DNA of 33,231 bases from Chitinophagales bacterium. GTDB lineage: Bacteria; Bacteroidota; Bacteroidia; Chitinophagales; LD1. Each line of letters begins with the position of its first letter. Position 1 is the stretch's first letter. The position numbers and the translations under genes are program-made. Below the pieces are notes generated by a model, which saw only the letters and a list, made by a program, of their open reading frames with translations, ran no database searches and was not told where the DNA came from. The DNA is taken from positions 1 to 33,231 of the forward strand of contig JBKJJB010000375.1 in the NCBI GenBank assembly GCA_046598235.1, in the 5' to 3' direction. This document shows positions 546 to 25,611 of the stretch, one piece after another.

Positions 546-3500
546 TTACTTCTTCGAAGTTTTACCTGAATAAACTTTTTCTCCGTCAAGAATTCTGAAG
601 ATATATAAACCCTCAGAAAGATTTGTTGCAATGGTGTTTAGTGCAGACGGATTCAGTTTCTCCTTTACAACTACTTGTCCATTTATGTTCATCAATTCAA
701 GAATAGGAACAGAAAGTTCTGCTGAGGTAAGGTCTACAACAAAATCATTGCTGTTCCAATATGCTTTAATCATGCTCTGTGCATTTTCTTTAATACCACT
801 AATTGCAGTTACCATTACCACAACTTCCTGTGATGTAAGTTTATCATTCGCTGAATTGGTTGATTCGCAAATGATATAATAAGGACTTACAATATTGAAA
901 CGAGGAATAAGAGTTGCCCCTGTTTCGGCTGGATTAAAAGCCGCAAACCCTAAACCTGATACCTGCGAGTATTTCCATACGCGAGTTGCGGGGTGAGTTT
1001 CAGTAACACTAATAGCAGTTCCGTTTTGTCCTTGCACAAGATGTTGAGTATCTGCCAGGGCAATACTTATTTCGAAAGGAACTATACTTAGGTTATTGCC
1101 GTTATCGCTGCCAACCACAGCAGGATCAGTAGATACTACTCTTATTCTAAATCCTGTACCTGCTACGGAAGTAGTTGGAATAGTTGCTGAGATAGTTCCG
1201 ATAGTTGCGCTTGTAAGCGTTCCTATTTCTACAGGGTTTGCAAAATTGCCTATGTTATCTGAAAGTTGTGCTTTGAAAATATTTCCTGCATTAAATACTA
1301 CATCGGATGTATAATCAACATTTACAGGAGCTGCAAGGTTGGCAGAAATTAGAAAAGGTGAACCGCTTACTGCTGAAGTAGTGATCGTGCTTCCGTTGGT
1401 AACATTAATCTCTACTTCATTACTCGTTACTTCATCACTATATGTATTGGTGGAAACACAAACCACATAATATGTTCCGGGTAATGGAAAGTTAGGAGTG
1501 TAAGAACTTCCTGTTTCGGCAGGAGCAAAACTTACATAACCGCTTCCGCTGGTGGTGGTATATTTCCATTCATTGGTAGATATTTGTGAAGCAAACACTG
1601 CAATACCTGTTCCACTTGTACTGTGTTGTATTGTTTGAGTAGAAGGAGGAGAAATAGAATTATTAAACTGATCTATAACCAAATCAACTCCGTTATCGCT
1701 TCCTAGCACTACAGGGTCATTTGAAATTACTCTTATTCTATATCCTGTTCCCGCAGGTGTTGTATGGGGAACAGTTGCAGAAATAGTTCCTGATGAGGTA
1801 GCAGCTACAGTTCCTATATCTACAGGGCTGCTAAACGAACCCGAAGCATCTGAAAGCTGTGCTGTAAAAATATTTCCACTATTAAAAGTTCCGCTCGTAG
1901 TATAAGGAACATTCACCAAAACATCAGGAGCCGAAGGACTGAACAAGAACGGAGAACCTGCAATTGTTCCTGTTGCAATGGTAGCATTGCCAACCGAAAT
2001 CAAAACTTCATTACTAAATACTGTAACTCCGCTAACAATGCTTTGACACACTACATAATAGTTTCCTGCGCTGGCAAAATTAGGAGTATAGGTAGTTGCT
2101 CCTGTTACAGCAGGGATAAAAGAAGAGTAAGGTCCGCCCGAAACAGTAGAATATTGCCACTCGCGCCATGAACCCGTTGGAGTTTCAGTAACAGTAAGTG
2201 TGTTTCCATTTACTCCTACTAAAATACTTTGTGGGGAAGTAGGTGCAATGCTATTTGCTACTACGGTTACTACTACTTCATTGCTGATAACCGTTAATCC
2301 TCCCGGAAAAGAAGAAACACAAACTACATAGTAAGTGCCTGTGTTAGAAAAATTAGGAGTATAAGCAGTTCCTGTTTCAGCAGGGAAAAAATTTACATAA
2401 TTACTTCCGCTGGTATTGGTGTATTTCCATTCGCGTGAAGTGGCTCCTGAAGTTTCGGTAACGGCTAATGCAGTGCCTGCTGTAAAAGCAGCTATTGTTT
2501 GAGCGGTAGAAGGTGCAACTGAATTTGTAACCAAGGTAATAGATATGTCTGCCCCGTTATTAGCCGCAGTAAGTGCGGGGTTGCTGCTTACTACTCTTAT
2601 TCTATATCCTGTTCCGGTGGCGGTGTTGGCAGGAATGGTAGCGGTGATAGTGCCCGAAGTGGTAGCAGTAACCGAACCAATATTAGTAGCAGAAGCAAAT
2701 GAACCACTCGCATCGCTCAATTGAGCCGTTACCGTATTTGCTCCGTTATAGGTTCCTGTAAGAGTAAACGGAACACTTACGCTTGCACCCGATGTAGCAC
2801 TTACATAATATGACAAAGGAGAAATAGTTCCAGTGGCAATGGTTGGATTGTAGATAGCTTCAAAATCGTCAAGCCAAAGAGTGCTGTTTTGAGTTCCGCC
2901 TGTTTGGTTGCCGCTACTAGTAGAGGTAATAAGGATGTATTGAGGGGTTCTTCCATCTACATATACAAAAGGAAGCGAAACGCGCGTCCACGTAGCCACA
3001 TCCGAGTTAGGAACATTGAGCCATTTGGCACGGGCAATAATGTTTACTGTGCTATCAGGATGATTATTATTAGAAGGAGTTTCAGGAGCATAGCAATTTC
3101 CTACATGCAGGCGCGCTTCTACATTTGGATAATCGGAACTATACGAATCGTATCTAAACCAAAAGACCAAACTATCGGGTCTGCCGGTAAAGGGCATTGA
3201 ATAGTTCGGGTCACCTGGTATAGTACGAATATATCCGTCTGACTTATTAATAGTAGGCGCTTCTACTTTGCCGGTAGTAAGCGAGCCATTAACCGTGGTA
3301 ATAATATAGAAACCGGTTTTTACTCTAGCGCAGTAAGTGCCTCCATGCGGATTGGTAGTTTCCTGAAAACAGGTTTGCCCTCCGGTGCTTGCATTGCCGC
3401 CTCCGGTCATATTACTGTTCCAGTATTGTGGCTCGGTAGTACTTCCGCTTCCGGTCCAATTCTCCATATTAGCATTCCCAATAGTAGTTTGGGCTTTGCC

Positions 3501-3554
3501 TGCTAATGACATTATTGTTACAAACAGAAGAAGTAAAATCCTTTTCATAATCAT
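546..3554 (-). CDS. Large secreted modular protein: signal peptide, N-terminal beta-sandwich (PCMD-like), A-B-B-A-B-A-B repeat modules, T9SS type-A C-terminal sorting domain
   Basis: 1002-aa ORF. N-terminal signal MIMKRILLLLFVTIMSLAGKAQ. N-domain strings GNANMENW, PFTGRPDSLVFWFRY and STLWLDDFEAIY resemble the Bacteroides PCMD domain (from memory). C-terminus ...NLSEGLYIFRILDGEKVYSGKTSKK is typical of a T9SS CTD. Confidence 0.85.
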   Translation of the reverse strand: MIMKRILLLLFVTIMSLAGKAQTTIGNANMENWTGSGSTTEPQYWNSNMTGGGNASTGGQTCFQETTNPHGGTYCARVKTGFYIITTVNGSLTTGKVEAPTINKSDGYIRTIPGDPNYSMPFTGRPDSLVFWFRYDSYSSDYPNVEARLHVGNCYAPETPSNNNHPDSTVNIIARAKWLNVPNSDVATWTRVSLPFVYVDGRTPQYILITSTSSGNQTGGTQNSTLWLDDFEAIYNPTIATGTISPLSYYVSATSGASVSVPFTLTGTYNGANTVTAQLSDASGSFASATNIGSVTATTSGTITATIPANTATGTGYRIRVVSSNPALTAANNGADISITLVTNSVAPSTAQTIAAFTAGTALAVTETSGATSREWKYTNTSGSNYVNFFPAETGTAYTPNFSNTGTYYVVCVSSFPGGLTVISNEVVVTVVANSIAPTSPQSILVGVNGNTLTVTETPTGSWREWQYSTVSGGPYSSFIPAVTGATTYTPNFASAGNYYVVCQSIVSGVTVFSNEVLISVGNATIATGTIAGSPFLFSPSAPDVLVNVPYTTSGTFNSGNIFTAQLSDASGSFSSPVDIGTVAATSSGTISATVPHTTPAGTGYRIRVISNDPVVLGSDNGVDLVIDQFNNSISPPSTQTIQHSTSGTGIAVFASQISTNEWKYTTTSGSGYVSFAPAETGSSYTPNFPLPGTYYVVCVSTNTYSDEVTSNEVEINVTNGSTITTSAVSGSPFLISANLAAPVNVDYTSDVVFNAGNIFKAQLSDNIGNFANPVEIGTLTSATIGTISATIPTTSVAGTGFRIRVVSTDPAVVGSDNGNNLSIVPFEISIALADTQHLVQGQNGTAISVTETHPATRVWKYSQVSGLGFAAFNPAETGATLIPRFNIVSPYYIICESTNSANDKLTSQEVVVMVTAISGIKENAQSMIKAYWNSNDFVVDLTSAELSVPILELMNINGQVVVKEKLNPSALNTIATNLSEGLYIFRILDGEKVYSGKTSKK
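807..2846 (-). repeat. Intragenic protein-module repeats: three ~100-aa A modules and four ~90-aa B modules
   Basis: A modules cover aa 237-340, 524-627 and 720-825. They share ...AQLSDxxGxFxxPxxIGxxxxxxxGTIxATxPxxxxxGTGYRIRVxSxxP...DNG. B modules cover aa 341-432, 433-522, 628-719 and 826-916. They share ...TETxxxxxxEWKYxxxSGxxYxxFxPAETGxxYTPNFxxxGTYYVVCxS...SNEV. Confidence 0.8.
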
Positions 3555-10368: not shown

Positions 10369-11865
10369 ATGAGTAAAAAGACATTCACTACACTTCTCTT
10401 CTGCCTTATAGTTGCAAGTATTTTTGCAAGCGATAAGAAACCAATGAACATCAAGATAGCCGTAAAAGGTCTTGAGAGTTCGAACATGATTCTTGCCAAT
10501 TATTATGGCGATAAGCAGTATGTAAAAGACACCTTGGAGTTTGATAAAAAGGGAGTGCTTACTATTAAGGCTGACACCACTCTTCCCGGTGGAGTTTACT
10601 TGGCGGTGTTTCCTGCTTTAGGCAATCGCTATTTTGAGTTTATTATAAGTGAATCTGTTTTTTCGCTTGAAACAGATACAAATGACTTAACAGGTCGTTT
10701 AAAAATAGCTGGCTCAATAGAAAACTCTCTCTTTTACGGAGACATGAAATTCCTGGGCAAGATGAAACAGGTTTCTGATTCTATCAATAAGCTCTATGCC
10801 GGTGCAAAAGATGAAAAGGAAAAAGAAAAATTTTTAAACCAGTTAAGACAAATTGATAAGGATGTAAAAGCAGAACGAAATGATGTAATGACAAAAAATC
10901 CTGATTTGTTCTATGCAAAACTGATTAGAGCAATGAAAGATATAGAGGTACCAGAGCCGCCAAAAGATGCTGCCGGAAAAATCATTGATTCATCGTGGCA
11001 ATGGCGCTATTATAAATCACACTATTGGGATAATATTGATTTGAAAGACGAACGTCTTTTGCGTTGCCCGGTATTTCACAACAAAATGAAAACTTTTTTC
11101 TCTCAAACAATTGTTCAGGTTCCTGATTCTATTTCGGCAGCTACCGATGAAGTGATTTCAAAAACAGATAAGAAAAACGAAATATATCGCTACCTGCTTA
11201 CTTACATTTTTAATGAAATGGCAAATTCAAAAGTAATGGGATTTGATGCAGCGTATGTTCATATCGGAAAAAATTATTTCTGTAATGCAGATATGACTCC
11301 ATGGATTGACACTGCCAAACGTTTTAAAATCTGCGACCGCGTAAACAGACTTGAACCGGTATTGGTAGGCAAAAAAGCGCAACGCCTCATTCTGCCTGTT
11401 GATTCTACCGAAATGCAATGGAAATCACTTTATGATATAAAAGCCAAATACACAATTCTTGCATTTTGGGATCCGGATTGCGGACACTGTAAGAAGGAAC
11501 TTCCGGTGTTGGTTGAAGCGTATCATAACCTAAAAAAGAAAGGGATTGATGTAGAAGGTTTTTCTCCTGCCATTATGGAAATTGAACATTATAAAGATTG
11601 GCTTGATTTTATCAAGAACAATAATCTTGACTGGATAAATGTTTGCGATGCAAAACGCCATAGCAATTTCCGATGGGAATGGGATATACAGAGCACACCG
11701 CAGATTTATATTCTTAATAGCGAGAAAGAAATTAAAGCAAGAAGAATAGGTGCTGATCAGGTAGAAGATTACATTCTGCATTTAGAAAACCCAAGTTACA
11801 AGCCCAGAAACCTGATGAAGGTGAACGATGAAGATATACAGGAAGGAACAGAACAAATGCATTGA
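10369..11865 (+). CDS. Secreted thioredoxin-fold protein (DUF5106-like N-region plus TlpA/AhpC-like domain with a CGHC active site)
   Basis: Signal peptide MSKKTFTTLLFCLIVASIFA. Thioredoxin motif ILAFWDPDCGHCKKELP. 498-aa ORF followed by a terminator. Confidence 0.8.
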   Translation: MSKKTFTTLLFCLIVASIFASDKKPMNIKIAVKGLESSNMILANYYGDKQYVKDTLEFDKKGVLTIKADTTLPGGVYLAVFPALGNRYFEFIISESVFSLETDTNDLTGRLKIAGSIENSLFYGDMKFLGKMKQVSDSINKLYAGAKDEKEKEKFLNQLRQIDKDVKAERNDVMTKNPDLFYAKLIRAMKDIEVPEPPKDAAGKIIDSSWQWRYYKSHYWDNIDLKDERLLRCPVFHNKMKTFFSQTIVQVPDSISAATDEVISKTDKKNEIYRYLLTYIFNEMANSKVMGFDAAYVHIGKNYFCNADMTPWIDTAKRFKICDRVNRLEPVLVGKKAQRLILPVDSTEMQWKSLYDIKAKYTILAFWDPDCGHCKKELPVLVEAYHNLKKKGIDVEGFSPAIMEIEHYKDWLDFIKNNNLDWINVCDAKRHSNFRWEWDIQSTPQIYILNSEKEIKARRIGADQVEDYILHLENPSYKPRNLMKVNDEDIQEGTEQMH

Positions 11866-12052: not shown

Positions 12053-12538
12053 ATGCTGAACATTCACCGCACCGAACCGTATCGCTTGTTTTTGATTGAA
12101 GATAGCCCTGCAGAAGTTCGTCTGATACAGGAGGCTGTAAAGGAAGCCGAACTCTCCGATATGATTGAATTTGAATACGCCTATGATGGAGAGGAAGCTT
12201 GTGAGTTGCTTGACACTGCAAAAATGATTGGAAAGAAGTATGACTTAGTGTTGTTGGATTTAAACTTGCCGAAAGTTACAGGAATTGAAGTATTAGAAAA
12301 AATAAAGACAGATCCTGATTTGGAAATGATTCCCGTTATAGTTGTAACAAACTCCGATTACAAGAAAGATATGATTGAATGCTACCGCATGAATGCTGAC
12401 GGCTATCTTCAAAAACCGGCTGACTTTAAAAAACTGGTAGATTTCTTTGTGTCTGTTAAGCGTTCTATTGAAGTAAGAAACAAACTTTCGATTTATTACA
12501 TCGAAAAAACTTACGATGAATTAGCGATGGCTAGTTGA
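12053..12538 (+). CDS. Single-domain response regulator receiver (CheY/Rcp1-like), orphan
   Basis: LFLIEDSPAEVRLIQEA, DLVLLDLNLPKVTGIEVL, IPVIVVTNS and DGYLQKP are the receiver acidic pocket, phospho-Asp, T/S and K positions. There is no output domain. Confidence 0.88.
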   Translation: MLNIHRTEPYRLFLIEDSPAEVRLIQEAVKEAELSDMIEFEYAYDGEEACELLDTAKMIGKKYDLVLLDLNLPKVTGIEVLEKIKTDPDLEMIPVIVVTNSDYKKDMIECYRMNADGYLQKPADFKKLVDFFVSVKRSIEVRNKLSIYYIEKTYDELAMAS

Positions 12539-13258
12539 TGCTTCGGCAAACAATAGGTTAATCACGTCTGTTCTAAAGTTTTCACTTCGCTTTACTTCCA
12601 CAAACTTTTTCTCTTCTGTCATCAGCCAGCATTTACTGCTATACTCTAATGATGCTTCAATATCATGGGTTGAAAGAATTACAATCTTCTTCATTTCTCT
12701 TGAAATGGCAGCAAGCAATTGAAGAATCTCCTTTTTGTTTCTGAAATCAAGAAAAGCTGTCGGTTCGTCTAAAATGATAACAGGTGTTTGCTGACATAAT
12801 GCACGGGCAATTAAAACCTTCTGTCTCTCTCCATCACTTATTTGATTAAAGAGCTTGTCCTGAAGTTTTTCCAGCTTCATAGCTGAAATCACCTTCTCCA
12901 ATTCTTTTAAATCCTCATATCTCATTTTACCAAACCAACTCGTATGTGGTGAGCGCCCCAATGCAATAACCTCTTTTACTGAAATATTATCGACAAAAAT
13001 TTTCTCTGTCAAAACAATGCTGATAAGCTTCGCTCTTTCCTGAACCGGTAAGTTTTCAAGCTGCTTCTCTCCTACATAAATGTTTCCGCTTACACTGTTT
13101 TGCAATCCAGAAATGGTTCTCAACAAAGTTGATTTACCAATTCCGTTTACACCGAGTAAGGCAACCATTTCGCCTTCGTTGGCAGAAAAAGAAATATCAC
13201 GAAAAACGATTTTATCGCTTCCGTAACCAATATTTAATTTCTCTGCCTGCAGTTTCAT
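12521..13258 (-). CDS. btuD: ABC transporter ATP-binding protein, iron-siderophore/cobalamin (FecE/BtuD-like) family
   Basis: Walker A GVNGIGKSTLL. Signature LSDGERQKV. Walker B VIILDEPTAFLD. It is the last gene of the riboswitch-led operon and directly abuts the permease gene (TAA then ATG). Confidence 0.85.
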   Translation of the reverse strand: MKLQAEKLNIGYGSDKIVFRDISFSANEGEMVALLGVNGIGKSTLLRTISGLQNSVSGNIYVGEKQLENLPVQERAKLISIVLTEKIFVDNISVKEVIALGRSPHTSWFGKMRYEDLKELEKVISAMKLEKLQDKLFNQISDGERQKVLIARALCQQTPVIILDEPTAFLDFRNKKEILQLLAAISREMKKIVILSTHDIEASLEYSSKCWLMTEEKKFVEVKRSENFRTDVINLLFAEASTSHR

Positions 13259-14275
13259 TTAGAATTTACGTTGACGAAGTATTATCCATATAACCACAGG
13301 TGCACCCAAAAGTGATGTAATAGCATTTATGGGCAAAATATTGTCAGAGCCTGGTGTAGATGCAATTACATTACACAGACCACAAATAACTGCTCCAATT
13401 ACCGCACAAGCAGGAATCAAAATTTTATGATCTGCTGTTTTAAATATAGCTCGTGAAAGATGCGGCACCGCCAATCCAACAAACCCAATTGGTCCGCAAA
13501 AAGCCGTTACACTTCCCGCTAAAATACTGGTGCATAAAACAATCAACACTTTTGCGTTGCGAATATTTAAGCCTGAACTTGCTGCATAGGTATCGCCCAG
13601 CAACAAAATGTTTAATGGTTTAGAAAGGAAAAAGGAAAATACAATTCCTATTAGCACCACCAGTGTGAGATAAAAGACCTGATTCAAATCAACATAACGG
13701 AAACTGCCGAAAGTCCAAAGCACATAATTCTTCAATGCTTCATTGCTGCTGAACGACTGCATAATTTCAATCATGGCACTAATTCCTCCACCAATCATTA
13801 AACCAATAATAAGAATAGCTACTACATCGTTCAAGCGATAAGAAACAAGAAAGTTGATAAAAAAAATAAGCACAGCACCGGCTGCTGCTGCAAGAATAAT
13901 ACTCCAACTACTCAACAAATGAATTTCGTGAATACCGAAAGCAGAAGCTGCTAAAATAAATATGGCTACACCCAAACTTGCACCGGCACTAATGCCTAGC
14001 ACATAAGGTCCTGCAATTGGGTTGCGAAACATGGTTTGCATTTGCAAACCACTTACTGATAAGCCTGCACCAGCAAGCAGAGCTGCAAGCGCAGCAGGCA
14101 AGCGCGATTCCAAAATAATGTTTCGCCATGCTTCATTGCCCATATTGTTTCCTGCCAGAATATTCAGCACTTCTGAACAAGAAATAGAAACAGAACCAAG
14201 AAGTAGTTGCAAGAAAAATACAACCACAGTCAGAATTGAGAAAGAAGAAAACAGTATAATATTTCTACTGCTCAT
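13259..14275 (-). CDS. btuC: FecCD-family ABC permease (BtuC-like)
   Basis: 338-aa polytopic hydrophobic protein with FecCD-like strings (RNPIAGPYVLGISAGASLG, LLGAPVVIWIIL). Its start overlaps the upstream stop as ATGA (14272-14275). Confidence 0.85.
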   Translation of the reverse strand: MSSRNIILFSSFSILTVVVFFLQLLLGSVSISCSEVLNILAGNNMGNEAWRNIILESRLPAALAALLAGAGLSVSGLQMQTMFRNPIAGPYVLGISAGASLGVAIFILAASAFGIHEIHLLSSWSIILAAAAGAVLIFFINFLVSYRLNDVVAILIIGLMIGGGISAMIEIMQSFSSNEALKNYVLWTFGSFRYVDLNQVFYLTLVVLIGIVFSFFLSKPLNILLLGDTYAASSGLNIRNAKVLIVLCTSILAGSVTAFCGPIGFVGLAVPHLSRAIFKTADHKILIPACAVIGAVICGLCNVIASTPGSDNILPINAITSLLGAPVVIWIILRQRKF

Positions 14276-15438
14276 TTTAGTTTTCGGTAGTAATACAGCT
14301 CATGATTAGGCAATAGTTCGGGATGGAAAATAAAAATCAAATCAGCCAACACCACATCGGGATTCAATGCACCGGTTTCCCAAAAATCAAAACCTCCGCT
14401 TGGTGTGTTACGTTTATCGTTATTGAAAATACTTGCAGTTTTGTAGGCATTAAAAAAAGTGTTCTTCTTATCTGCCGCTTTTATTTCGGTGAGCGAACGG
14501 GCAAAACCATTGCACAACCAAATATCAGCATCAGCCGCTTTGGCATATACGGCTTCATAATCTAAATTCAGATTTAAACCATTGGTCGCCTTTGCATCCT
14601 TCCACAAAAAATCGCCACCGGCATCGGCAATTAACTTTGCCATATAGTTTTCGCCACAGGGCATATACCATATCTCTTTAAAAGGAAGGTTGGAAAACAC
14701 CGTTGGCTTGCTTAAAACGCCTTTTAATTTATCCTTTAGCGACAAATAGTTTTTCTCTACATCCTGAAAAATGCTATCCGCTTCAAATTCCTTATCATAA
14801 AAAGCAGCAGTAAATTTTATCCATTCAGCACGCGCCAAAGGTTCTTGCTCCATATAGTCCAAGTTCAAAACTGACTTAATATGAAGCGAGTTCAACTTCT
14901 TTTTCATTTTATCGCCACCATCCCAATCGCCCGATGTAAAAACAAAAGATGGATTTAACTCCACCATCTTTTCATAATTCAATTCATTGCTTCCTACATT
15001 AGCAATTTGATTCTGTTTCACTTTAGCTACTACATCCGTATCATAAATCAAATCTACATTCGCTACTCCACAAATTGAATCAACCAAACCCAAACGAGTA
15101 AGAGTAGCAATGTGATTAGTAGAAATACAAATTATTTTCCTGATCGGTGTATCAAGCAAAAGCGCATCGACAAAATCAACCGGTGCAGGCTTACCTTTCT
15201 GTACTAAAATGTATTGCGCAAATACTTTTGAACTATCTCTCCAATCCTTTACAGTTATAACTTTAAAGCTGTTGTAGTAATCAACCGAAAACCCTTTGGC
15301 ATATTTTATCAGCAGCGAAGTATCTTTAATGCAATGAGTGGTGTGTTGCTCTTTAGTCTGGGTTTTGCTTCTGCATGACCATTGACCAATGACCAATGAC
15401 AATAAAAGGCAAACTACCGCCAAATGTTTCCTAATCAT
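14272..15438 (-). CDS. btuF: Periplasmic-binding-protein type 2 substrate-binding lipoprotein (BtuF-like)
   Basis: The internal ATG at 15438 gives a lipoprotein signal, MIRKHLAVVCLLLSLVIGQWSC. The body resembles Peripla_BP_2 (RKIICISTNHIATLTRLGL..., PSFVFTSGDW). The listed 15546 start would overlap the upstream gene by >100 nt. With 15438 the overlap is 8 nt. Confidence 0.8.
   Translation of the reverse strand: MIRKHLAVVCLLLSLVIGQWSCRSKTQTKEQHTTHCIKDTSLLIKYAKGFSVDYYNSFKVITVKDWRDSSKVFAQYILVQKGKPAPVDFVDALLLDTPIRKIICISTNHIATLTRLGLVDSICGVANVDLIYDTDVVAKVKQNQIANVGSNELNYEKMVELNPSFVFTSGDWDGGDKMKKKLNSLHIKSVLNLDYMEQEPLARAEWIKFTAAFYDKEFEADSIFQDVEKNYLSLKDKLKGVLSKPTVFSNLPFKEIWYMPCGENYMAKLIADAGGDFLWKDAKATNGLNLNLDYEAVYAKAADADIWLCNGFARSLTEIKAADKKNTFFNAYKTASIFNNDKRNTPSGGFDFWETGALNPDVVLADLIFIFHPELLPNHELYYYRKLK
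15375..15402. repeat. Imperfect heptanucleotide tandem array (4 units) inside the BtuF-like signal-peptide coding region
   Basis: Plus strand: ATGACCA TTGACCA ATGACCA ATGACAA. The coding strand reads TTGTCATTGGTCATTGGTCAATGGTCAT and encodes LSLVIGQWS. Confidence 0.85.
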
Positions 15439-16468
15439 GATTAAAAGCAAAGTTGCCAGAAATAATTCCGGCTGTGAAAGAATGAAGTAATATTCCGTTT
15501 TTGTTGTAACGGTAAATACGCGATTGCTGAACAAAGTCAAGTGCATCGCTTACATAAACATCACCGGTTATTTGATCAACACCTGTAGCATAAATACTTG
15601 ATGCAGTTGAGCGTATATAAGGCCAACCAGGAAATTGAAAATTATCTACACCATAAACGTCTTTTCCTAAAACATACCACACCATTCCGCGTGTTGCGTC
15701 TATTTGTAACCTAGAAGGATGGTCAACAATCTGGTTAAATGAATAATTGAAAAGCAGATTAAAATTTCTATCAAAAACTTTAATAGCAGCTGTGGTTGCG
15801 GAGGCACTATCTGAACTAGTTAAAATCCAAACATATTTGTTGGAATCAACTGCAATACCTTCTGCATCTCCGGCAAATTCTTTCTTATCAATATAGGTAT
15901 TATCGCTTATCCTGATTCTATACAAAGCACCCTTAGCAGAAGGATTTGAATAGATTTTCTTCCCTTCAACAAAAACATATTCACCTGCTTGAACTAAATG
16001 TTCTGTATACTGAGGTATAGAAATTTCAGTTTTCAAATTACCTGTTAAATAATTGACAACATAAATTTTGTTAGAATAAAGTTCAGTAACATAAGCAATA
16101 CTATCACTAACAGGGAGAATGTATCTTGGCGAAGAGCCGTTAATCGTTATCGTTCTTATCCTTTGAAACGATGGAAGTTTAACCACTTCTATTTTTGCAG
16201 AATTATTAATCACCACAAAAGCAATAGAATCCTTAATGAACATGCTTTGCGCTACATCGCCCAACGAATAACCATTTGCAGATTGAAACAAATTATTCGT
16301 TACTGCATTTGTATTCGGGTCATAAAAAGAAACTTCGCCATTGCCGAAATTGAAATTGCCTTCATTGATAATGTAGACACCTTTACCCGTAGGCAAATCG
16401 GGAGTTTTGTCTTTATGGCAAGAAGAAATGAAAGCGATAAGAATTAAGAGTAAGTAATTTCCTTTCAT
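15431..16468 (-). CDS. Surface lipoprotein, YncE/DUF5074-like beta-propeller (BtuG-like candidate by context)
   Basis: Lipoprotein signal MKGNYLLLILIAFISSC. GVYIINEGNFNFGNGEVSFYDPNTN and repeated blade-like segments (IYVVNYLTGNL, VWILTS, VWYVLG, VYVSDA). It sits directly downstream of the TonB-dependent receptor with a 1-nt overlap. Confidence 0.7.
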   Translation of the reverse strand: MKGNYLLLILIAFISSCHKDKTPDLPTGKGVYIINEGNFNFGNGEVSFYDPNTNAVTNNLFQSANGYSLGDVAQSMFIKDSIAFVVINNSAKIEVVKLPSFQRIRTITINGSSPRYILPVSDSIAYVTELYSNKIYVVNYLTGNLKTEISIPQYTEHLVQAGEYVFVEGKKIYSNPSAKGALYRIRISDNTYIDKKEFAGDAEGIAVDSNKYVWILTSSDSASATTAAIKVFDRNFNLLFNYSFNQIVDHPSRLQIDATRGMVWYVLGKDVYGVDNFQFPGWPYIRSTASSIYATGVDQITGDVYVSDALDFVQQSRIYRYNKNGILLHSFTAGIISGNFAFNHD

Positions 16469-18327
16469 CAGCTTAGTTTAAATCGAATTGTTCCTTCAAA
16501 ATTTCTTCCGGGCATTGGACGTTGCGCTACGTTCTGATACTGTTTATCCGTCAAATTATTTACACGAAACGACAACCCGATTTCATATTTATGGTTAATT
16601 ATAAAATCTTTCCCTGCTTCTAAATCTAACAGGTAATATCCTTTCAGATTTTGGGTATTATCGGTAGTAATAAAAACCGCATCGGTAAAAGTATTTATAG
16701 CATTCAAATAAAATCGTTTGTATTCAAAGTGAACGCTCGCGTTTGTCAAATGCAGCGGCACGTATATCAATTGCTTATTCTTGGATTGGTCGAAAGGCGA
16801 AAGTGCATCAAGATTGGTGGCTCGTGTGTAAGCATAGTTACAGGATAAACGGAAAATAAAATCGCGATTAGATGGAGTTTGAAATGAAGCATAAATTTCT
16901 GCTCCTCTCGTTAGCACACGTTTTACATTTTGCGGCTCCCAGTAAGTTCCATTATTAATCCACTGAATCCAATTAGTGATGTATTTGCAAAATCCTGTAG
17001 CTTTAAAAGTAAAGCGACTTTGATAATTGTAGCGCGCAGTTACCTCTCCATCCCAACTCTTCTCTGTTATTAAATCACGATTGCCGCCCGGCACCCAATA
17101 CAAATCGTTGAGTGTAGGAAATCTGAAATTGCGCGATGCACTAACTAAAAACATCAAGTAATGTTCTTGGTTGATAATTTTATAATACCGGAATGAAAGT
17201 GCCGGAGAAAAAGGCGAAAAGGTTTTATCGTAAATACTTTCACGCAACTTCAGTTGAACTAGAATTTCCTTTATTGGTTCATACTTTACGTCTGCTGAAA
17301 GTTTTCCAATATGTCTGCCTCTGATAATTTGATACGAAGGAACTATAGCTCTTTCAAAATCGTAACCTGCTCCAATATTTACCGAGAACTTATTAATGCT
17401 ATCGTAAGTAAGCGAAAAACTATTTCTGAACGCCTGCATAATAGATTTTTCGTTCAAATAAATTTCGGGATTCTTATAGTGAATTACATCCTGCAAAAAC
17501 GCAGAAGTAAATTCTGTCGTCAGCTTTCTAAAATTTCCCTTCCAAAAAAGCGAAGTGCGCATAGAGTAATCATCCTGCACTTCTTTGCTGTAAGGCTTGC
17601 TAATGATTGGTGGAATTTGTCGCTGCGCATCGCTTAACCAAAAATTAAAGTGTAGCGAATTATTTTGATTAACTCTCGCACTAAACTGTTGCATAAAATG
17701 TAACATCTGTACTTTAGCATTCGTCAATTTCTCTTTTGCGTTTCCTGGCTTGTAAGTGTTTACAAAAGAATAATCGTTATCGCTCTGCATATAGCTGATT
17801 CTTGTAGTCCCGAAAATTTTTCCATTTCCAAAACCGGCTTTACCAAAAGTGCGAAGTGTATTAAAACTTCCGTAAGTAATAAACGCTTCAAACATAAACA
17901 TCGAATCAACGGTTGTTCCATTATTGATATTCAGCGAGCCTCCGATATTACCTGATTGCGAAGTGCCATTTACCTGAACTTGATCGCTCATTCCCATATT
18001 AAACAACGAAGCATCTACCTGGCCAAGAGAAGGAGAATTCAATTTTACTCCATTCCATAAAATATCGGTTTGTGCTGCGCTTGTACCACGAAAAGCAATA
18101 GAAGCTAGTTGACCATTCCCGTAATTCTTGATATAGATACCCGTGTTTTCACGCAATGCATCATTCAGATTTTTTGATGGAGCAATGGAGTAAATAATCT
18201 TTGCCTTCAAAATAGTTGTAGAGGAAATTTTTTCTACTTGTGGTAAAGTATAAACGCTATCTATTTTTAGCTGTGCATTCGACAAGGCAAACAACAACAG
18301 CAACAGATATGTTAGCGCACATTTCAT
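16468..18327 (-). CDS. btuB: TonB-dependent outer-membrane receptor (BtuB-like by size and context)
   Basis: Signal peptide, then plug-domain strings NLNDALRENTGIYIKNYGNGQLASIAFRGTSAAQTDILWNGVKLNSP. Barrel with C-terminal ...PMPGRNFEGTIRFKLS. 619 aa. It is downstream of a cobalamin riboswitch. ATGA overlap with the upstream gene. Confidence 0.85.
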   Translation of the reverse strand: MKCALTYLLLLLFALSNAQLKIDSVYTLPQVEKISSTTILKAKIIYSIAPSKNLNDALRENTGIYIKNYGNGQLASIAFRGTSAAQTDILWNGVKLNSPSLGQVDASLFNMGMSDQVQVNGTSQSGNIGGSLNINNGTTVDSMFMFEAFITYGSFNTLRTFGKAGFGNGKIFGTTRISYMQSDNDYSFVNTYKPGNAKEKLTNAKVQMLHFMQQFSARVNQNNSLHFNFWLSDAQRQIPPIISKPYSKEVQDDYSMRTSLFWKGNFRKLTTEFTSAFLQDVIHYKNPEIYLNEKSIMQAFRNSFSLTYDSINKFSVNIGAGYDFERAIVPSYQIIRGRHIGKLSADVKYEPIKEILVQLKLRESIYDKTFSPFSPALSFRYYKIINQEHYLMFLVSASRNFRFPTLNDLYWVPGGNRDLITEKSWDGEVTARYNYQSRFTFKATGFCKYITNWIQWINNGTYWEPQNVKRVLTRGAEIYASFQTPSNRDFIFRLSCNYAYTRATNLDALSPFDQSKNKQLIYVPLHLTNASVHFEYKRFYLNAINTFTDAVFITTDNTQNLKGYYLLDLEAGKDFIINHKYEIGLSFRVNNLTDKQYQNVAQRPMPGRNFEGTIRFKLS

Positions 18328-19319
18328 TCAACAACTAACTTCGTTACGAGCGATTCTACTTTTAGAAAATAAATTCCTTTAGGGAAGTTGACAGTTGACA
18401 GTTGACAGTTGACAGTTGAAATCCCCATTTCATGTACCAATCTTCCACTAAAATCAAAAGCTTTCAGTCTGCTTCCAACCGACTCTTCATTAACAGCTAT
18501 CTGAACTTCGCTGCCAACTGACGGATTTGGGAAAGTTCGTAATTCGTAATTCGTAATTCGCAATTCCTCAACTGCTGTAGTACTAACCTGATTGATAACT
18601 CCCACTGCATCTAAATCGAAACCGCTTGAAGCAAATGCTGTTGGGTACGGGTCATTTATCTTTTGCCCAAATTGGTCATGTGTTGCATATTGATTACCGA
18701 TAGAACCAACTACATCTATTAAGCGCACATGCGTAATGTTGTTTACATCTATCCCTGCTTCATTTTTCAATTCTTCTAAATCGAAAGGAGTGCCGAAGCC
18801 GGAAACATATTTGCCTGCCAGATTATTTACCAGAGAGCAATCTACTCCTGTCATTGGAATCTGCATAGTATCCTGAATATTTGAAGTGGCAGGGAAACGG
18901 AAGAAATTGATTCCATCACTGCTTACTTCTACAAAAGCAAACTCAAGAAATGCTAAAGGGCTTTGTGTATAAAATCCGTTTTCGAAAACAGCAAAGTCGA
19001 AACCTAGTCCATTATAAATTGGATTTTGAAAAGCGAGTGTGGCAACACCGCTATCACCTAAACTAACTACTCCGTTTTGCCCTGCCATACCAATGGCAGA
19101 GTTTGCATTACCCACCGTTGTATACCCGGAATCAGGCACAGCAATATCCATATACCCGCGCTGAATTACACAACCGGTTGCCCAAGCCACAAAAGCAGAA
19201 CTATCTTTTTCCATGGCTGTTGTTCCCATCACATTTGCCGCAGGTGCAAATTGCGCGTCTGCTAAGTTTATTAGTTGTAGAGAAACCAGCAGTAGAAAAA
19301 TATTTTTCATGAAACTCAT
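18324..19319 (-). CDS. Secreted protein of unknown function with a T9SS type-A C-terminal sorting domain
   Basis: Signal peptide MSFMKNIFLLLVSLQLINLADAQ. Conserved-looking core DFAVFENGF...FLEFAFVEVSSDGINFFRFP...NLAGKY...GTPFDLEEL...VRLIDVVG. CTD TFPNPSVGSEVQIAV...FPKGIYFLKVESLVTKLVVE. It is the second gene of the riboswitch operon. Confidence 0.8.
   Translation of the reverse strand: MSFMKNIFLLLVSLQLINLADAQFAPAANVMGTTAMEKDSSAFVAWATGCVIQRGYMDIAVPDSGYTTVGNANSAIGMAGQNGVVSLGDSGVATLAFQNPIYNGLGFDFAVFENGFYTQSPLAFLEFAFVEVSSDGINFFRFPATSNIQDTMQIPMTGVDCSLVNNLAGKYVSGFGTPFDLEELKNEAGIDVNNITHVRLIDVVGSIGNQYATHDQFGQKINDPYPTAFASSGFDLDAVGVINQVSTTAVEELRITNYELRTFPNPSVGSEVQIAVNEESVGSRLKAFDFSGRLVHEMGISTVNCQLSTVNFPKGIYFLKVESLVTKLVVE
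18387..18419. repeat. Perfect heptanucleotide tandem array, GTTGACA x4.7, inside a T9SS CTD coding region
   Basis: GTTGACA GTTGACA GTTGACA GTTGACA GTTGA. The coding strand translates to STVNCQLSTVN, immediately before FPKGIYFLKV. Confidence 0.95.
18536..18566. repeat. Heptanucleotide tandem array, TTCGTAA x3 plus TTCGCAA plus TTC, at the start of the same T9SS CTD
   Basis: TTCGTAA TTCGTAA TTCGTAA TTCGCAA TTC. The coding strand translates to (E)LRITNYELR, immediately before TFPNPS. Confidence 0.95.
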
Positions 19320-19327
19320 TTTAATAA

Positions 19328-19360
19328 AGTGATGCCATCGTTTTAAACGATGGCATCACT
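19328..19360 (-). terminator. Perfect 33-nt palindrome/hairpin in the 51-bp gap between operon genes 1 and 2 (partial terminator or RNA processing/stability element)
   Basis: AGTGATGCCATCGTTT-T-AAACGATGGCATCACT. On the minus strand it is followed by TTTATTAAAATG. Confidence 0.5.
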
Positions 19361-19370
19361 GGTTCTCAAA

Positions 19371-20621
19371 TTATTGTTTCACAATTTTCTTTACCAAAGT
19401 TCCGTTCAGCGAACTCATTTTCACAAAGTAAATTCCTAATGAAAGTTCTTCCGTATTTAACTCAAGTGTATTGCTTTCAATAGCAGAAATTGTCTTCACT
19501 AAAATTCCTGTAACATCAAACAAATCAACTTGATTGATTACAGCCGATGAACGAATAGATATGTTATTGCTAAACGGATTTGGAAAAACCTTTACAGCAA
19601 CATCTGCAATTTCATCAAGCCCTGTAACGCCTGTTACATTTATATAAACAACTGCGGTATCGCTTGCGCCTAAGGCATCGTAAACACGATACACTAAAGA
19701 ATCTGTAGCAACAAGTCCAATAGCTGGCGTGTAATGAATTTCATTATTCTCAACCGTAGCCATAGCACCCGGAATAAGTGGTGCACTCAATAATTCAACA
19801 GTATAAGGATTGGCAATTAAACCGGCATCGTTGGCAAGCACGGCAATCACCGTGTCGTTTAAGTAGGTAGTAGTTACAGCATCATCGTTAGCTGTTGGTT
19901 GCGCATAAGCAGTATCGCCTGTAGTGAAATTGTCCATCGCGAAATAAGCCGGTGTATTCATGTAACCGAAAGCAGTGTCAGATGAAGTAAGTTGAAAAAT
20001 AATGCTATCCACATCACCCAGAGGCTGCAAATCAAACCAAGTCCAGTCGCTAAGCATATAATCCTGTGTACTATCAGCCGAACGAAAATCTGCAAGGAAA
20101 AAGTCTACTGCCTGTTGTTTCATTGCTCCGTTGAGCCATCCCATAGCACGCAAACGAAACCAATCCGGATCGGCACTGGTAGCGCCTCCAAATTTCTTAG
20201 CAAATTGATCTCCGTTTTTCATGCTCAGATATGCATAGGTGGTATTGGTTACATAAAAGCCTTTTACCAATTTACCCGATGCATTACCAGTTAATCGAAT
20301 TTTCGCATTGCCGTATTCATCGGCAACAGCGTACTGTTCTGAACCGTTATAGCCGCTTGCAGTGATAGCTGCGTATTGATTACCGAAACCAGCGGTCGTG
20401 CTATCCTTCTTATTCGAGTATGTAAAACCACTCCACGAAGCCCACGCGGTGTTGTAATCGTTTACAAAATTGGCATTGCCACTATTGAAGCCACCACTTA
20501 AATCGCTGCCATTCCAAAAGGTGTCGGTAGCAAGAGGAAGGTCTTCGAATGTAGAAACTGTTTGAGAGAAAAGAAAACTTGCCATAAGTGTGGCACACAT
20601 GAATAGGTTGAATTTTTTCAT
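19371..20621 (-). CDS. DUF4465-like secreted protein with a cadherin/Ig-like segment and a T9SS type-A CTD (BtuH-like candidate by context)
   Basis: Signal MKKFNLFMCATLMASFLFSQ. STFEDLPLATDTFWNGSDLSGGFNSGNANFVNDYNTAWASWSGFTYSNKKD...NQYAAI...GFYVTNTTYAYLSMKNGDQFAKKFGG...DWFRL matches my recollection of DUF4465. PTANDDAVTT...VLANDAG is a cadherin-like string. CTD VFPNPFSNNISI...LGIYFVKM...KKIVKQ. It is the first gene after the riboswitch. Confidence 0.8.
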   Translation of the reverse strand: MKKFNLFMCATLMASFLFSQTVSTFEDLPLATDTFWNGSDLSGGFNSGNANFVNDYNTAWASWSGFTYSNKKDSTTAGFGNQYAAITASGYNGSEQYAVADEYGNAKIRLTGNASGKLVKGFYVTNTTYAYLSMKNGDQFAKKFGGATSADPDWFRLRAMGWLNGAMKQQAVDFFLADFRSADSTQDYMLSDWTWFDLQPLGDVDSIIFQLTSSDTAFGYMNTPAYFAMDNFTTGDTAYAQPTANDDAVTTTYLNDTVIAVLANDAGLIANPYTVELLSAPLIPGAMATVENNEIHYTPAIGLVATDSLVYRVYDALGASDTAVVYINVTGVTGLDEIADVAVKVFPNPFSNNISIRSSAVINQVDLFDVTGILVKTISAIESNTLELNTEELSLGIYFVKMSSLNGTLVKKIVKQ

Positions 20622-20699
20622 TATAACAATGATTTAAATTGGTTAAAAAATTCGCCCCGAAAAATGAATGGATGGATTATGAAACCGTGCACTGTTCCA

Positions 20700-20885
20700 G
20701 TTCTCCGCCTTTCTTCCCGAAAGCTTTTGACTAATGTGCCGAAGGCAGGTCTTCTGGTTTACTCTGTTTCTATCGCCTTCCCGGTTTTTACACCAGTGGC
20801 TTTGTGAGATAGAAACTTTTAAAGAGCTTACAGCAGCGGGTACTACTCAGGATTTTCACCTGATTCCCTATTGGACTATTCATTG
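20700..20885 (-). promoter_or_regulatory. Cobalamin (B12) riboswitch
   Basis: The minus strand reads, in order: AATAGGGAATCAGGTGAAAATCCTGAGTAGTACCCGCTGCTGTAAGC ... AGCCACTGGTGTAAAAACCGGGAAGGCG ... AAACCAGAAGACCTGCC (B12 box, plus-strand 20744-20757). These are the conserved cores of the cobalamin aptamer, upstream of a TonB-receptor/BtuFCD operon. The ends are approximate. Confidence 0.9.
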
Positions 20886-20969
20886 TAACATGAAATTGTC
20901 ACCTTTAGCGTTGCAAATAGAATCATTTATTTTGTAATTACTAAAAATATTTTTTGAACCTTGCGTTTG

Positions 20970-21287
20970 ATGATTATGAAAACTACCTTGTTAGTAGTTA
21001 CCTTCTTTCTACTTGTGTTTGCCTCTTCTTGCCATAAATGCTACGAATGCAAACAGTATTGCGCCTATTGTGTTTCAGCAACAAATAACGGATTGTCGTA
21101 TAAAATCTGTGCGTCAAATGACGTTAATCATTTCAAGGTTGATTCGCTCAAAAATGCCTATCAAAGTAATGGCTACAACTGTTCGTTATTGGAAAATGAT
21201 AAGAAGGTGTGCGATAATCCGAATAAACTAAACGAGGCAGTTGACTACTACCAGCTACAGGATTACTATTGCAATCCAACTGAATAA
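20970..21287 (+). CDS. Small Cys-rich putative lipoprotein, unknown function
   Basis: MIMKTTLLVVTFFLLVFASSC is a lipobox-like signal. The mature part begins CHKCYECKQYCAYC and has 9 Cys in total. The listed start at 20961 is a TTG; ATGs lie at 20970 and 20976. A terminator follows. Confidence 0.6.
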   Translation: MIMKTTLLVVTFFLLVFASSCHKCYECKQYCAYCVSATNNGLSYKICASNDVNHFKVDSLKNAYQSNGYNCSLLENDKKVCDNPNKLNEAVDYYQLQDYYCNPTE

Positions 21288-23826: not shown

Positions 23827-25611
23827 TCAATCTACCTTGATAAATTTTTTACTAACCTCTTTACCCTGAATATTAAGTTTTATCCAATACATACCTGCTT
23901 GCAGAGAAGCAATATTGAAACTAATCTGATGACCTTCATACTTGAAAGGTGCTGCTGTTACTTTACCGGTTATATCACAAATGCGGAAAGTAGTATTTGC
24001 ATCAGTAATTAAATCAGCAGTTACTATCAGTTGTTTATTAGCAGGATTAGGATAAATTGTAATAAGACTTTCTTCTAAATCATTTATACCGGTGCAAAGA
24101 CGAACCACAATTGTTTCAGTTGCAGAATTGGTACATGTGTTTCCATCTATATATGTATAAGCAATAGTGTGCGTACCAGTGCCGGATGTACCAGGATTAA
24201 AAGAGTTTCCTGTAATTCCTATACCGCTGTATGTTCCCCCGGAAGGACTACCGCCTGTTAATGTTATAGAAGCGGCAGTGTTGCAAAGTGTATCTGCATT
24301 TCCTGAAAGAGTAACACTCGGCAAAGGATTAATTGTGACAGCTATCGCATTGCTGGTATCCGCACAATTAGAAGCATTTTTTACAACTACTCTATATGAA
24401 CCTCCAAATGCCGAGGCACTGTAACTTGAGGTGGTTGCTGTGCCTAAATTACTACCATTTAACTGCCACAAATAAGTAACTCCTGCAGTAGCAGTGGCTT
24501 GAAGAGTAATACTGCTTCCCTGGCAAACAGCTACGGGACCTGCTGGAGAAACAGTTACAGAAGGAGTCTCGCTAACCGTAACAGTTATTACATTACTTGT
24601 TGCATTACATCCTCCGCTGCTGTATGATACCGAATAAGCACCTGATGAATCAGCTATAGTGTATGTGCTATCCATCTCCCCTATAATATCAACTCCATTG
24701 CGCTGCCACTGATTAGCGAAAGAAGCATTCTGTGCAGCATGCAAGGTAACTGAACTTCCACGGCAGAGAGAGGTAGCTCCATTAGCTGTTATTTGAAAAT
24801 TACCTGCACCACCCGATACTGTGTAATCGATAGTATCAATATCCGAGTTGCCTGCTGCATCAGTTACCGTAACTGTATAAGTTGAATTTTGAGTAAGCGT
24901 TGCAGTGGGATTTAGGCAGGTACTACAACTTAAAGAGTTTCCTGTAGATTGCCATAAATAGGTAACCGGCTGTAATCCACCTGTAACTACAGGATTAAGA
25001 GTAGCAATACTTCCGCTACAAACATTTTGGTCGGCACCTAGATTTACAACCGGTGGTGGCGATGCCGAACAGACTCCGCCATAAGGAACAAACGGTATTG
25101 TTGTTAGCGTGTCAACCGGTGTTATAGCATTGCCACTGTTTATTACACGCACATAATAATGCAATCCAACAGAAGAAGCATCTACCTGAACTGTAAACCC
25201 ATTTGTGAGAACTGCTGTCGCAATAATTCTTAACTTATATTGCCCTGTAGAATCGCAAGGCGTACCGTTTACCTTTATACATCCGTTTTCGGAATTTGCA
25301 TAAGTATTATTGACTTTATCGCTTGCCCAACACAAACCATTAGGCAGATTTTCAATACTATCAAGCTTGAGTGATTGTAAGGTAAACTGGCCTCCTCCAA
25401 AAAAAACGGTGTTGAAATTTCTAAACTCAATAACAGTTGTAGAAGCTACATTGTTTACAAAAGGCGGAAGCGAATCGGACATGGGCGAAAGACCGGGTTG
25501 CAAAACAGCACCCGAAGCAGTGCATTGACTTGAACCGGAGTTTCCGCAATACTGCGCTGAAACAGAAAAAACAAGAATAAAGCAGGTTGTAAATAGTAAA
25601 ATTTTTTTCAT
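23827..25611 (-). CDS. Secreted protein: Cys-containing N-domain, four Ig-like repeats, T9SS type-A CTD
   Basis: Signal MKKILLFTTCFILVFSVSAQ. Repeats contain ...C.GSS(I/V)TL.A....(Y)LWQ.NG...... and end in ...TV(T/S). CTD ITIYPNPANKQLIV...LQAGMYWIKLNIQGKEVSKKFIKVD. Confidence 0.85.
   Translation of the reverse strand: MKKILLFTTCFILVFSVSAQYCGNSGSSQCTASGAVLQPGLSPMSDSLPPFVNNVASTTVIEFRNFNTVFFGGGQFTLQSLKLDSIENLPNGLCWASDKVNNTYANSENGCIKVNGTPCDSTGQYKLRIIATAVLTNGFTVQVDASSVGLHYYVRVINSGNAITPVDTLTTIPFVPYGGVCSASPPPVVNLGADQNVCSGSIATLNPVVTGGLQPVTYLWQSTGNSLSCSTCLNPTATLTQNSTYTVTVTDAAGNSDIDTIDYTVSGGAGNFQITANGATSLCRGSSVTLHAAQNASFANQWQRNGVDIIGEMDSTYTIADSSGAYSVSYSSGGCNATSNVITVTVSETPSVTVSPAGPVAVCQGSSITLQATATAGVTYLWQLNGSNLGTATTSSYSASAFGGSYRVVVKNASNCADTSNAIAVTINPLPSVTLSGNADTLCNTAASITLTGGSPSGGTYSGIGITGNSFNPGTSGTGTHTIAYTYIDGNTCTNSATETIVVRLCTGINDLEESLITIYPNPANKQLIVTADLITDANTTFRICDITGKVTAAPFKYEGHQISFNIASLQAGMYWIKLNIQGKEVSKKFIKVD

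Follow-up and report, generated by a model that had tools for sequence, protein, structure and literature searches.

A riboswitch-led vitamin B12 uptake operon of a Chitinophagales bacterium with predicted type IX secretion cargo and a candidate corrinoid-handling domain

Introduction

This report concerns a vitamin B12 (cobalamin) uptake operon in a 33,231-nt stretch of DNA from a Chitinophagales bacterium (assembly GCA_046598235.1, contig JBKJJB010000375.1, positions 1 to 33,231), referred to below as the window. Seven closely coupled minus-strand genes lie downstream of a cobalamin riboswitch, and domain matches agree with the order that an earlier note on this DNA had given: a DUF4465 protein (gene 1, J), a 331-aa protein (gene 2, X), a TonB-dependent receptor, a propeller lipoprotein, and BtuF-, BtuC- and BtuD-like components. 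The products of J and X end in type-A C-terminal domains (CTDs) of type IX secretion (T9SS). The operon probably encodes a T9SS-delivered version of the BtuJ/G/B corrinoid relay of Bacteroides, together with a candidate new corrinoid-handling domain, X_N, which is carried by X.

The riboswitch and the operon layout

The cobalamin riboswitch aptamer is located at 20727-20921 (-) and is the sole Rfam match above the gathering score in the window. The cmscan comparison recommended in the earlier note gave a significant match to RF00174 (91.6 bits, with the gathering score set at 31.5 bits, E=1.1e-21), which covers the model over its full length (positions 1-189 of 189). Direct reading of the sequence recovered all four aptamer core strings on the minus strand in the order previously described, and the end of the B12 box was measured ~122 nt before the ATG at 20621, in accordance with the ~120 nt first given. 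The operon span originally proposed, 12521-20885, is correct for the genes, while its right end at 20885 clips 36 nt from the 5' side of the aptamer.

The leader at 20622-20726 (-), between aptamer and first gene, is a candidate expression platform, in whose minimum free energy structure (RNAfold) a long imperfect hairpin at ~20654-20724 precedes a U-run at 20645-20653. Nothing convincing came out when this leader was scanned for terminators and promoters. In its position and orientation ahead of the genes, the riboswitch would turn the operon off at B12 sufficiency.

The only real gap in the operon is the 51 nt separating genes 1 and 2. The other junctions are coupled just as had been described, with ATGA at 18324-18327, a 1-nt TGATG overlap at 16468, ATGA at 14272-14275 and an abutting TAA/ATG at 13258-13261 according to the open reading frame (ORF) coordinates, and the 8-nt overlap at 15431-15438 holds with the btuF start placed at an internal ATG.

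Gene J, a BtuJ-type DUF4465 protein

Gene J (19371-20621, -) encodes a 416-aa protein that is predicted to bind corrinoids in the manner of BtuJ and has the make-up of T9SS cargo. It is composed of a putative Sec type I signal (aa 1-20, assigned by eye), a DUF4465 domain (aa 59-232, nt 19926-20447), a Big_9 Ig-like spacer (PF17963; aa 241-328, nt 19638-19901) and a type-A CTD (aa 345-416, nt 19374-19589), all read from the minus strand. The expected membership of DUF4465 was borne out by the search against PF14717, in which J scored 178.5 bits against a cutoff of 25 and matched model positions 2-176 of 176. J also matched the solved, B12-bound DUF4465/BtuJ1 chains 9qpm and 9fct with E=2e-26. 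The main B12-contact loop motif of BtuJ1, MNTPSY (PMC12751083), is aligned to MNTPAY in J, and an alignment of 32 homologues (A4) showed that Y226 and P224 are invariant and N222 nearly so (at least 90%). N222 and Y226 would match N291 and Y295 of BtuJ2, which contact B12 (PMC13616437), a correspondence that is not derived from an alignment.

BtuH had been tentatively placed in DUF4465 by the earlier note, which is wrong: DUF4465 is the BtuJ family with BtuJ1 (BT1491) and BtuJ2 (BT1957), and BtuH is an unrelated globular domain of another fold (PMC13616437, PMC13398666). No protein of the present operon matches BtuH. BtuJ1 and BtuJ2 are augmented jelly-rolls that bind B12 and cobinamide with nM or tighter affinity (PMC13616437, PMC13398666). 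B12 was bound in vitro by eight divergent DUF4465 proteins, one of them from the flavobacterium Fluviicola taffensis (PMC13398666), and by analogy with these homologues J may be expected to bind corrinoids. J shares with the family (PF14717; 9FCT, 9I2L, 9HMU) the full-length domain and the MNTP(S/A)Y loop, but differs by the extra Big_9 spacer, the CTD and the absence of a lipid anchor. In place of the signal peptidase II (SPII) lipoprotein signal of B. thetaiotaomicron BtuJ1 and BtuJ2, J has an SPI-type signal and a CTD, with no lipobox. Therefore, J is a member of the BtuJ family by domain and belongs to a different export class.

Variants of J were also observed at other loci. In one locus (L030, 6660-9922), X-BtuB-BtuG-FCD is preceded by two tandem units, in each of which a DUF4465-Big_9-CTD gene is paired with a separate cobalamin riboswitch. 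Variants of ~630 aa (L004, 3488-5392; P0121 and P0123-P0125) apparently comprise two DUF4465 domains followed by Big_9 and a CTD. On a 6.5-Mb contig, a gene for a 537-aa DUF4465-CTD protein (L003, 9710-11614) stands alone right behind a cobalamin riboswitch with no transporter genes nearby.

Gene X and its X_N domain

Gene X (18324-19319, -) encodes 331 aa, comprising a putative Sec type I signal (aa 1-22, by eye), the uncharacterised ~225-aa domain X_N (aa ~23-250, nt 18570-19253) and a type-A CTD (aa 263-330, nt 18330-18533). The sorting domain is the only family matched by full-length X in Pfam and NCBIfam. X_N belongs to no Pfam family, as none was matched consistently by 32 members at E<=1, and no solved-structure relative was found with three X_N-only profiles of 17, 32 and 78 sequences. 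X, described in the earlier note as an unknown 331-aa protein, represents a large, unnamed domain family within the B12 riboswitch regulon. When clustered at 50% identity, the family numbers 2675 clusters for E<=1e-3 (972 for E<=1e-30), and it occurs in at least 523 GTDB species genomes of environmental Bacteroidota, from Chitinophagales, Flavobacteriales, Saprospiraceae, Cytophagales, Sphingobacteriales and some Bacteroidales. Flavobacterium, Mariniflexile and Taibaiella are among the cultured hosts, and a Fluviicola metagenome-assembled genome (MAG; L021) carries X_N as well. Ten D, E, N or Q positions of the domain are invariant (domain numbering): D69, D88, E93, N94, E106, Q133, D182, D195, N202 and D215.

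The sole consistent NCBIfam match of X_N, obtained with 31 of 32 members, is the LIC_13355 Leptospira lipoprotein family NF033170. This identity was rejected; the match is sub-threshold (best E=2e-7, far under the 120-bit cutoff), and the literature on the family concerns host-matrix binding, not B12. The full-length AlphaFold2 (AF2) model of X has a pLDDT of 79.6 and is a beta-sandwich as modelled. A domain-only AF2 model of X_N, built from the 17-sequence alignment, reached a pLDDT of 44 and was discarded as unusable.

Sorting domains and export class

T9SS cargo requires a Sec type I signal plus a CTD, and its fate is surface attachment or release, both of which are known for type-A cargo (PMC5445135). 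Type-A CTDs had been claimed for both leader proteins, and both indeed carry one at the extreme C-terminus with scores above the curated cutoffs of PF18962 (27 bits) and TIGR04183 (23 bits), namely 50 and 42.1 bits for J and 34 and 31.9 bits for X. By eye, the signals of J and X show a hydrophobic core and then Q (…FSQ/TV and …ADA/QF, respectively) with no lipobox, and the A/S-Q after the core is conserved, as AQT in J and AQFAP in X.

The sorting domain is also conserved among relatives. PF18962 is present on almost all of the best 120 homologues of J. For a wider view, 80 loci holding X were sampled from GTDB species genomes, and CTDs were counted across them with a home-made hidden Markov model (HMM). 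A CTD was detectable in J in 45/48 complete cases and in X in 57/69; the X members with no detected CTD have divergent but CTD-like tails. In one Bacteroidales MAG, J is instead a lipoprotein of 259 aa. A CTD was found in none of the BtuG proteins, of which 35/45 have a lipobox. The CTD on J and X and the lipobox on BtuG point to a systematic split, in which the outermost proteins use T9SS and the lid of BtuB is lipidated.

About 30% of DUF4465 proteins are non-lipoproteins and have been classed as bearing 'periplasmic targeting signals' (PMC13398666), from which one might suppose that the CTDs are vestigial or have some other use and that J and X work in the periplasm; a T9SS machinery gene is, moreover, not visible in the window. 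We regard this as highly improbable. The CTDs of both proteins exceed the curated cutoffs and are kept over dozens of species at 50-60% identity, which argues against relics, as a relic would decay, and BtuF is already the periplasmic binder of the operon. T9SS is unmentioned in the BtuJ/DUF4465 papers, and C-terminal sorting domains are unmentioned in PMC13398666. Literature searches combining T9SS with cobalamin, BtuB, BtuG or riboswitch returned nothing relevant linking T9SS to B12 uptake.

Synteny and association of X_N with B12 riboswitches

The comparison proposed in the earlier note showed that the synteny of riboswitch, DUF4465-CTD protein, TonB-dependent transporter and BtuG is shared by many related Bacteroidota. 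The closest relatives are found among Chitinophagales MAGs, and the same seven-gene order recurs in a MAG of this group at ~53% protein identity. Across the 80 X loci, tblastn (E<=1e-5, in a table that also counts L001-L003) detected DUF4465 in 45, BtuG in 50 and BtuB in 45. The gene orders include J-X-BtuB-BtuG-FCD, as in the window, J-X-BtuG-BtuB, BtuB-J-X-BtuG and BtuB-BtuG-X. Since this architecture is visible in databases and common, the window is not unique; the T9SS-type architecture is widespread, occurring in hundreds of species.

A cobalamin riboswitch was confirmed upstream by Rfam in 7/7 test loci, and an nhmmer model built from Rfam-confirmed loci was applied to the whole sample. 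A same-strand riboswitch was detected upstream of X in 64/80 loci, or 64/73 when loci whose contig ends upstream are set aside (7/16 of the misses), and none of the 80 loci had an opposite-strand riboswitch upstream of X. The linkage extends to several unusual arrangements. In three loci (L017, L050 and L058), no gene other than X follows the riboswitch. Fusions of DUF4465 and X_N, in either order, were found among 9/150 of the best cluster representatives and also at two loci, where a riboswitch and BtuB are followed by single ORFs of 547 and 558 aa (L048, 9275-10918; L051, 9242-10918) that encode DUF4465, X_N and a CTD. X_N comes before DUF4465 in P0331 and P0384. There are also fusions of DUF4430, X_N and a CTD, whose genes are likewise riboswitch-led, and DUF4430 is the transcobalamin C-terminal domain (PMC4350170). 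By guilt by association, these genomic patterns argue strongly for a corrinoid-related extracellular role of X_N, whichever that role may be. As a separate observation, the B12 locus of Flavobacterium calami (L044) has a Flavo-1 small RNA (RF01705, 61.7 bits) a few kb downstream, at 14554-14631.

One candidate role is that of a non-binding docking or scaffold module, in which X_N would tether secreted binders (J, DUF4430) to the surface or to BtuB-BtuG, or hold CTD-processed proteins in a surface layer. X_N nearly always has a CTD beside it, and in frequent fusions it stands C-terminal to proven or likely binder domains (DUF4465, DUF4430) or to Ig-like spacers. Its model suggests a beta-sandwich similar to those of adhesin, CBM and LamG-type domains, and its many invariant acidic residues are compatible with a structural Ca site. 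Set against this are the three loci with X alone behind the riboswitch, which have no binder or transporter gene nearby, and the Flavobacterium-type loci (BtuB-BtuG-X), in which X is the only CTD protein. An adaptor role is less likely where X has no partner binder, and we consider docking unlikely overall.

An enzymatic role is brought to mind by another locus (L072, 9756-13220), in which the riboswitch is followed by X, CobT (DBI_PRT), CobS and a CobC-like phosphatase, so that nucleotide-loop assembly genes stand in place of transport genes. X_N would then be an extracellular enzyme freeing or remodelling corrinoids before uptake, either by release from carrier proteins or detritus or by trimming lower ligands or amides. 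Besides this co-operonic arrangement with cobT/cobS/cobC, the invariant D/E/N/Q positions of X_N are in keeping with the idea. Yet comparisons with Pfam, NCBIfam and PDB revealed no resemblance of X_N to hydrolases or to enzymes of any other family, and its lone consistent weak match is to a functionally uncharacterised Leptospira lipoprotein family (NF033170), which makes the enzymatic reading improbable.

The transport genes and their neighbours

Genes 3 to 7 supply the transport part of the operon. Gene 3 (16468-18327, -) encodes a 619-aa BtuB-like TonB-dependent outer-membrane transporter with a Plug match of 43.7 bits; its best NCBIfam matches are TonB-dependent B12 receptor models, below their cutoffs, and its syntenic orthologues have both the Plug and the TonB barrel. 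Gene 4 (15431-16468, -) encodes a BtuG beta-propeller surface lipoprotein with DUF5074 and the lipobox ...FISSC followed by HKDK. Its assignment to BtuG is based on the propeller homology to solved BtuG chains (8p97/8okv, E=1.6e-51 over aa 8-342, 335 residues), the FISSC lipobox and the 1-nt overlap with btuB.

Gene 5 (14272-15438, -) encodes a BtuF-like periplasmic binding lipoprotein (Peripla_BP_2, 63.2 bits). The longest btuF ORF begins at 15546, and the internal ATG at 15438 yields the lipoprotein signal MIRKHLAVVCLLLSLVIGQWSC with the lipobox …QWSC. It is followed by a BtuC-like permease gene (13259-14275, -; FecCD, 260.7 bits), whose best NCBIfam match is the BtuC model NF003001 with 192.8 bits, below the cutoff of 334, and by a BtuD-like ABC ATPase gene (12521-13258, -; ABC_tran, 105.6 bits), with FecE and corrinoid ATPase models as top NCBIfam matches. 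The BtuFCD importer set of Peripla_BP_2, FecCD and ABC_tran is thus present in one operon, and its corrinoid specificity is read from the genomic setting, as no equivalog cutoff was reached.

Several other genes of the window were noted. A stand-alone response-regulator gene (12053-12538, +) is convergent with btuD with an 18-nt overlap, and together with a DUF4369/DUF5106/thioredoxin gene (10369-11865, +) it is kept beside the same operon in the Chitinophagales MAG L001. Divergent from the riboswitch, a gene at 20961-21287 (+) encodes a 108-aa Cys-rich putative lipoprotein of no Pfam family, with a …FASSC lipobox and 10 further Cys. A third CTD protein of 594 aa, unrelated to the B12 operon, is encoded at 23827-25611 (-) and contains Ig_7 (CHU_C-associated) and a Por_Secre_tail of 49.9 bits. 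At 546-3554 (-), a 1002-aa protein is encoded of which only the N-terminal PCMD (putative carbohydrate metabolism) domain is recognised.

Proposed relay and comparison with known systems

Under the proposed relay, scarcity of B12 would lift riboswitch repression and all seven genes would be expressed. J and X would cross the inner membrane via Sec by means of their type I signals and then be moved outward via T9SS by means of their type-A CTDs, which would be cleaved at this step, leaving each protein surface-attached or released. The DUF4465 jelly-roll of J would capture corrinoids with high affinity in a BtuJ-like manner and hand them to the BtuG lipoprotein lid on BtuB, and BtuF, BtuC and BtuD would finish the import. 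X would most likely take part in this stage outside the cell. That X is a second corrinoid binder or relay has, in our estimation, an even chance and is the likeliest of the roles considered. The more specific proposal, that X_N represents a new class of corrinoid-binding domain and forms with the CTD-bearing BtuJ a T9SS-secreted 'corrinophore' layer for B12 competition, is tentative and somewhat doubtful.

Several results weigh against this relay or against the part given to X in it. The signal peptide types were judged by eye, and no T9SS machinery genes were found in the window, so the host machinery is deduced from the presence of three CTD proteins within 33 kb and from taxonomy, Flavobacterium and Chitinophagales being T9SS bearers. 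The leader hairpin is no more stable than shuffled sequences (z-score 0.22, not significant), and the nhmmer model detected no riboswitch in 9/73 loci with adequate upstream sequence. With regard to X, the candidate of a divergent DUF4465 was rejected at an hhalign probability of 0.7%. A BtuH-like identity, suggested by the position after BtuJ and by one weak match to BtuGH 8blw_B (E=0.0064), was likewise abandoned: the three X_N-only profiles left BtuH/BtuGH chains unmatched at E<=10, the 8blw_B match was not reproduced by these later profiles, and 7BIZ and 8BLW were absent among the 50 Foldseek matches listed of 1363 (E<=10). Foldseek on the model of X gave weak jelly-roll, LamG, discoidin, CBM and adhesin-type matches, and as these are low-TM, no fold is assigned to X_N. 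With no detectable relation to a known B12 binder and weak model matches, the role of X_N is argued from its genomic association.

The Btu loci of B. thetaiotaomicron (PMC13616437, PMC10404256, PMC8941943) are the closest counterparts. Like the present operon, they are riboswitch-led and start with the BtuJ (DUF4465) gene, followed by a second accessory protein and then by BtuB, the BtuG propeller lipoprotein and BtuFCD; locus 2 begins with BtuJ2-BtuH2, in the positions of J and X here. The second protein of B. thetaiotaomicron is BtuH, whereas X has no BtuH sequence or fold match, and BtuJ and BtuH belong to the SPII lipoproteins and bear a lipoprotein export signal, in contrast to the SPI signals and type-A CTDs of J and X. 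PorT is missing from B. thetaiotaomicron and B. fragilis (PMC5445135). In B. thetaiotaomicron, which has no T9SS, outer-membrane vesicles extend the capture; here secretion or A-LPS-type anchoring would serve.

In comparison with type-A T9SS cargo such as gingipains and the secreted hydrolases of Flavobacterium (PMC5445135), the present proteins share the putative Sec signal, the Ig-like domain before a C-terminal TIGR04183 domain of ~70 aa and a Bacteroidota host. Known cargo consists mostly of proteases, glycanases, adhesins and motility proteins, and no riboswitch-controlled vitamin-scavenging T9SS cargo was found in the literature searches.

A similar logic is known from the hemophore-type capture of P. 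gingivalis, in which HmuY or HusA feeds a tetrapyrrole to TonB-dependent receptors: in both cases a high-affinity binder, extracellular or on the surface, would hand a tetrapyrrole to the transporter. HmuY is a lipoprotein and not CTD cargo, and the ligand, folds and regulation of the hemophores differ from those of the B12 operon.

Significance

B12 is a keystone shared micronutrient, and its capture in Bacteroidota is known mostly from gut Bacteroides, which have no T9SS and use surface lipoproteins and vesicles. The locus and its many relatives suggest that environmental members, which make up a much larger part of the phylum, send their outermost binders out via T9SS. Such export would add a nutrient-vitamin role to T9SS cargo and would revise the published localisation of non-lipoprotein DUF4465 proteins. 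The X_N family is nominated as a directly testable new B12-handling protein, and genetics would be possible in cultured hosts such as Flavobacterium pectinovorum, F. calami, Taibaiella soli, T. lutea and Mariniflexile gromovii. If the corrinophore proposal is true, the ~30% of DUF4465 proteins regarded as periplasm-targeted would be explained, and vitamin scavenging would be a previously unrecognised function of T9SS in environmental Bacteroidota from soil, freshwater, marine and activated sludge habitats.

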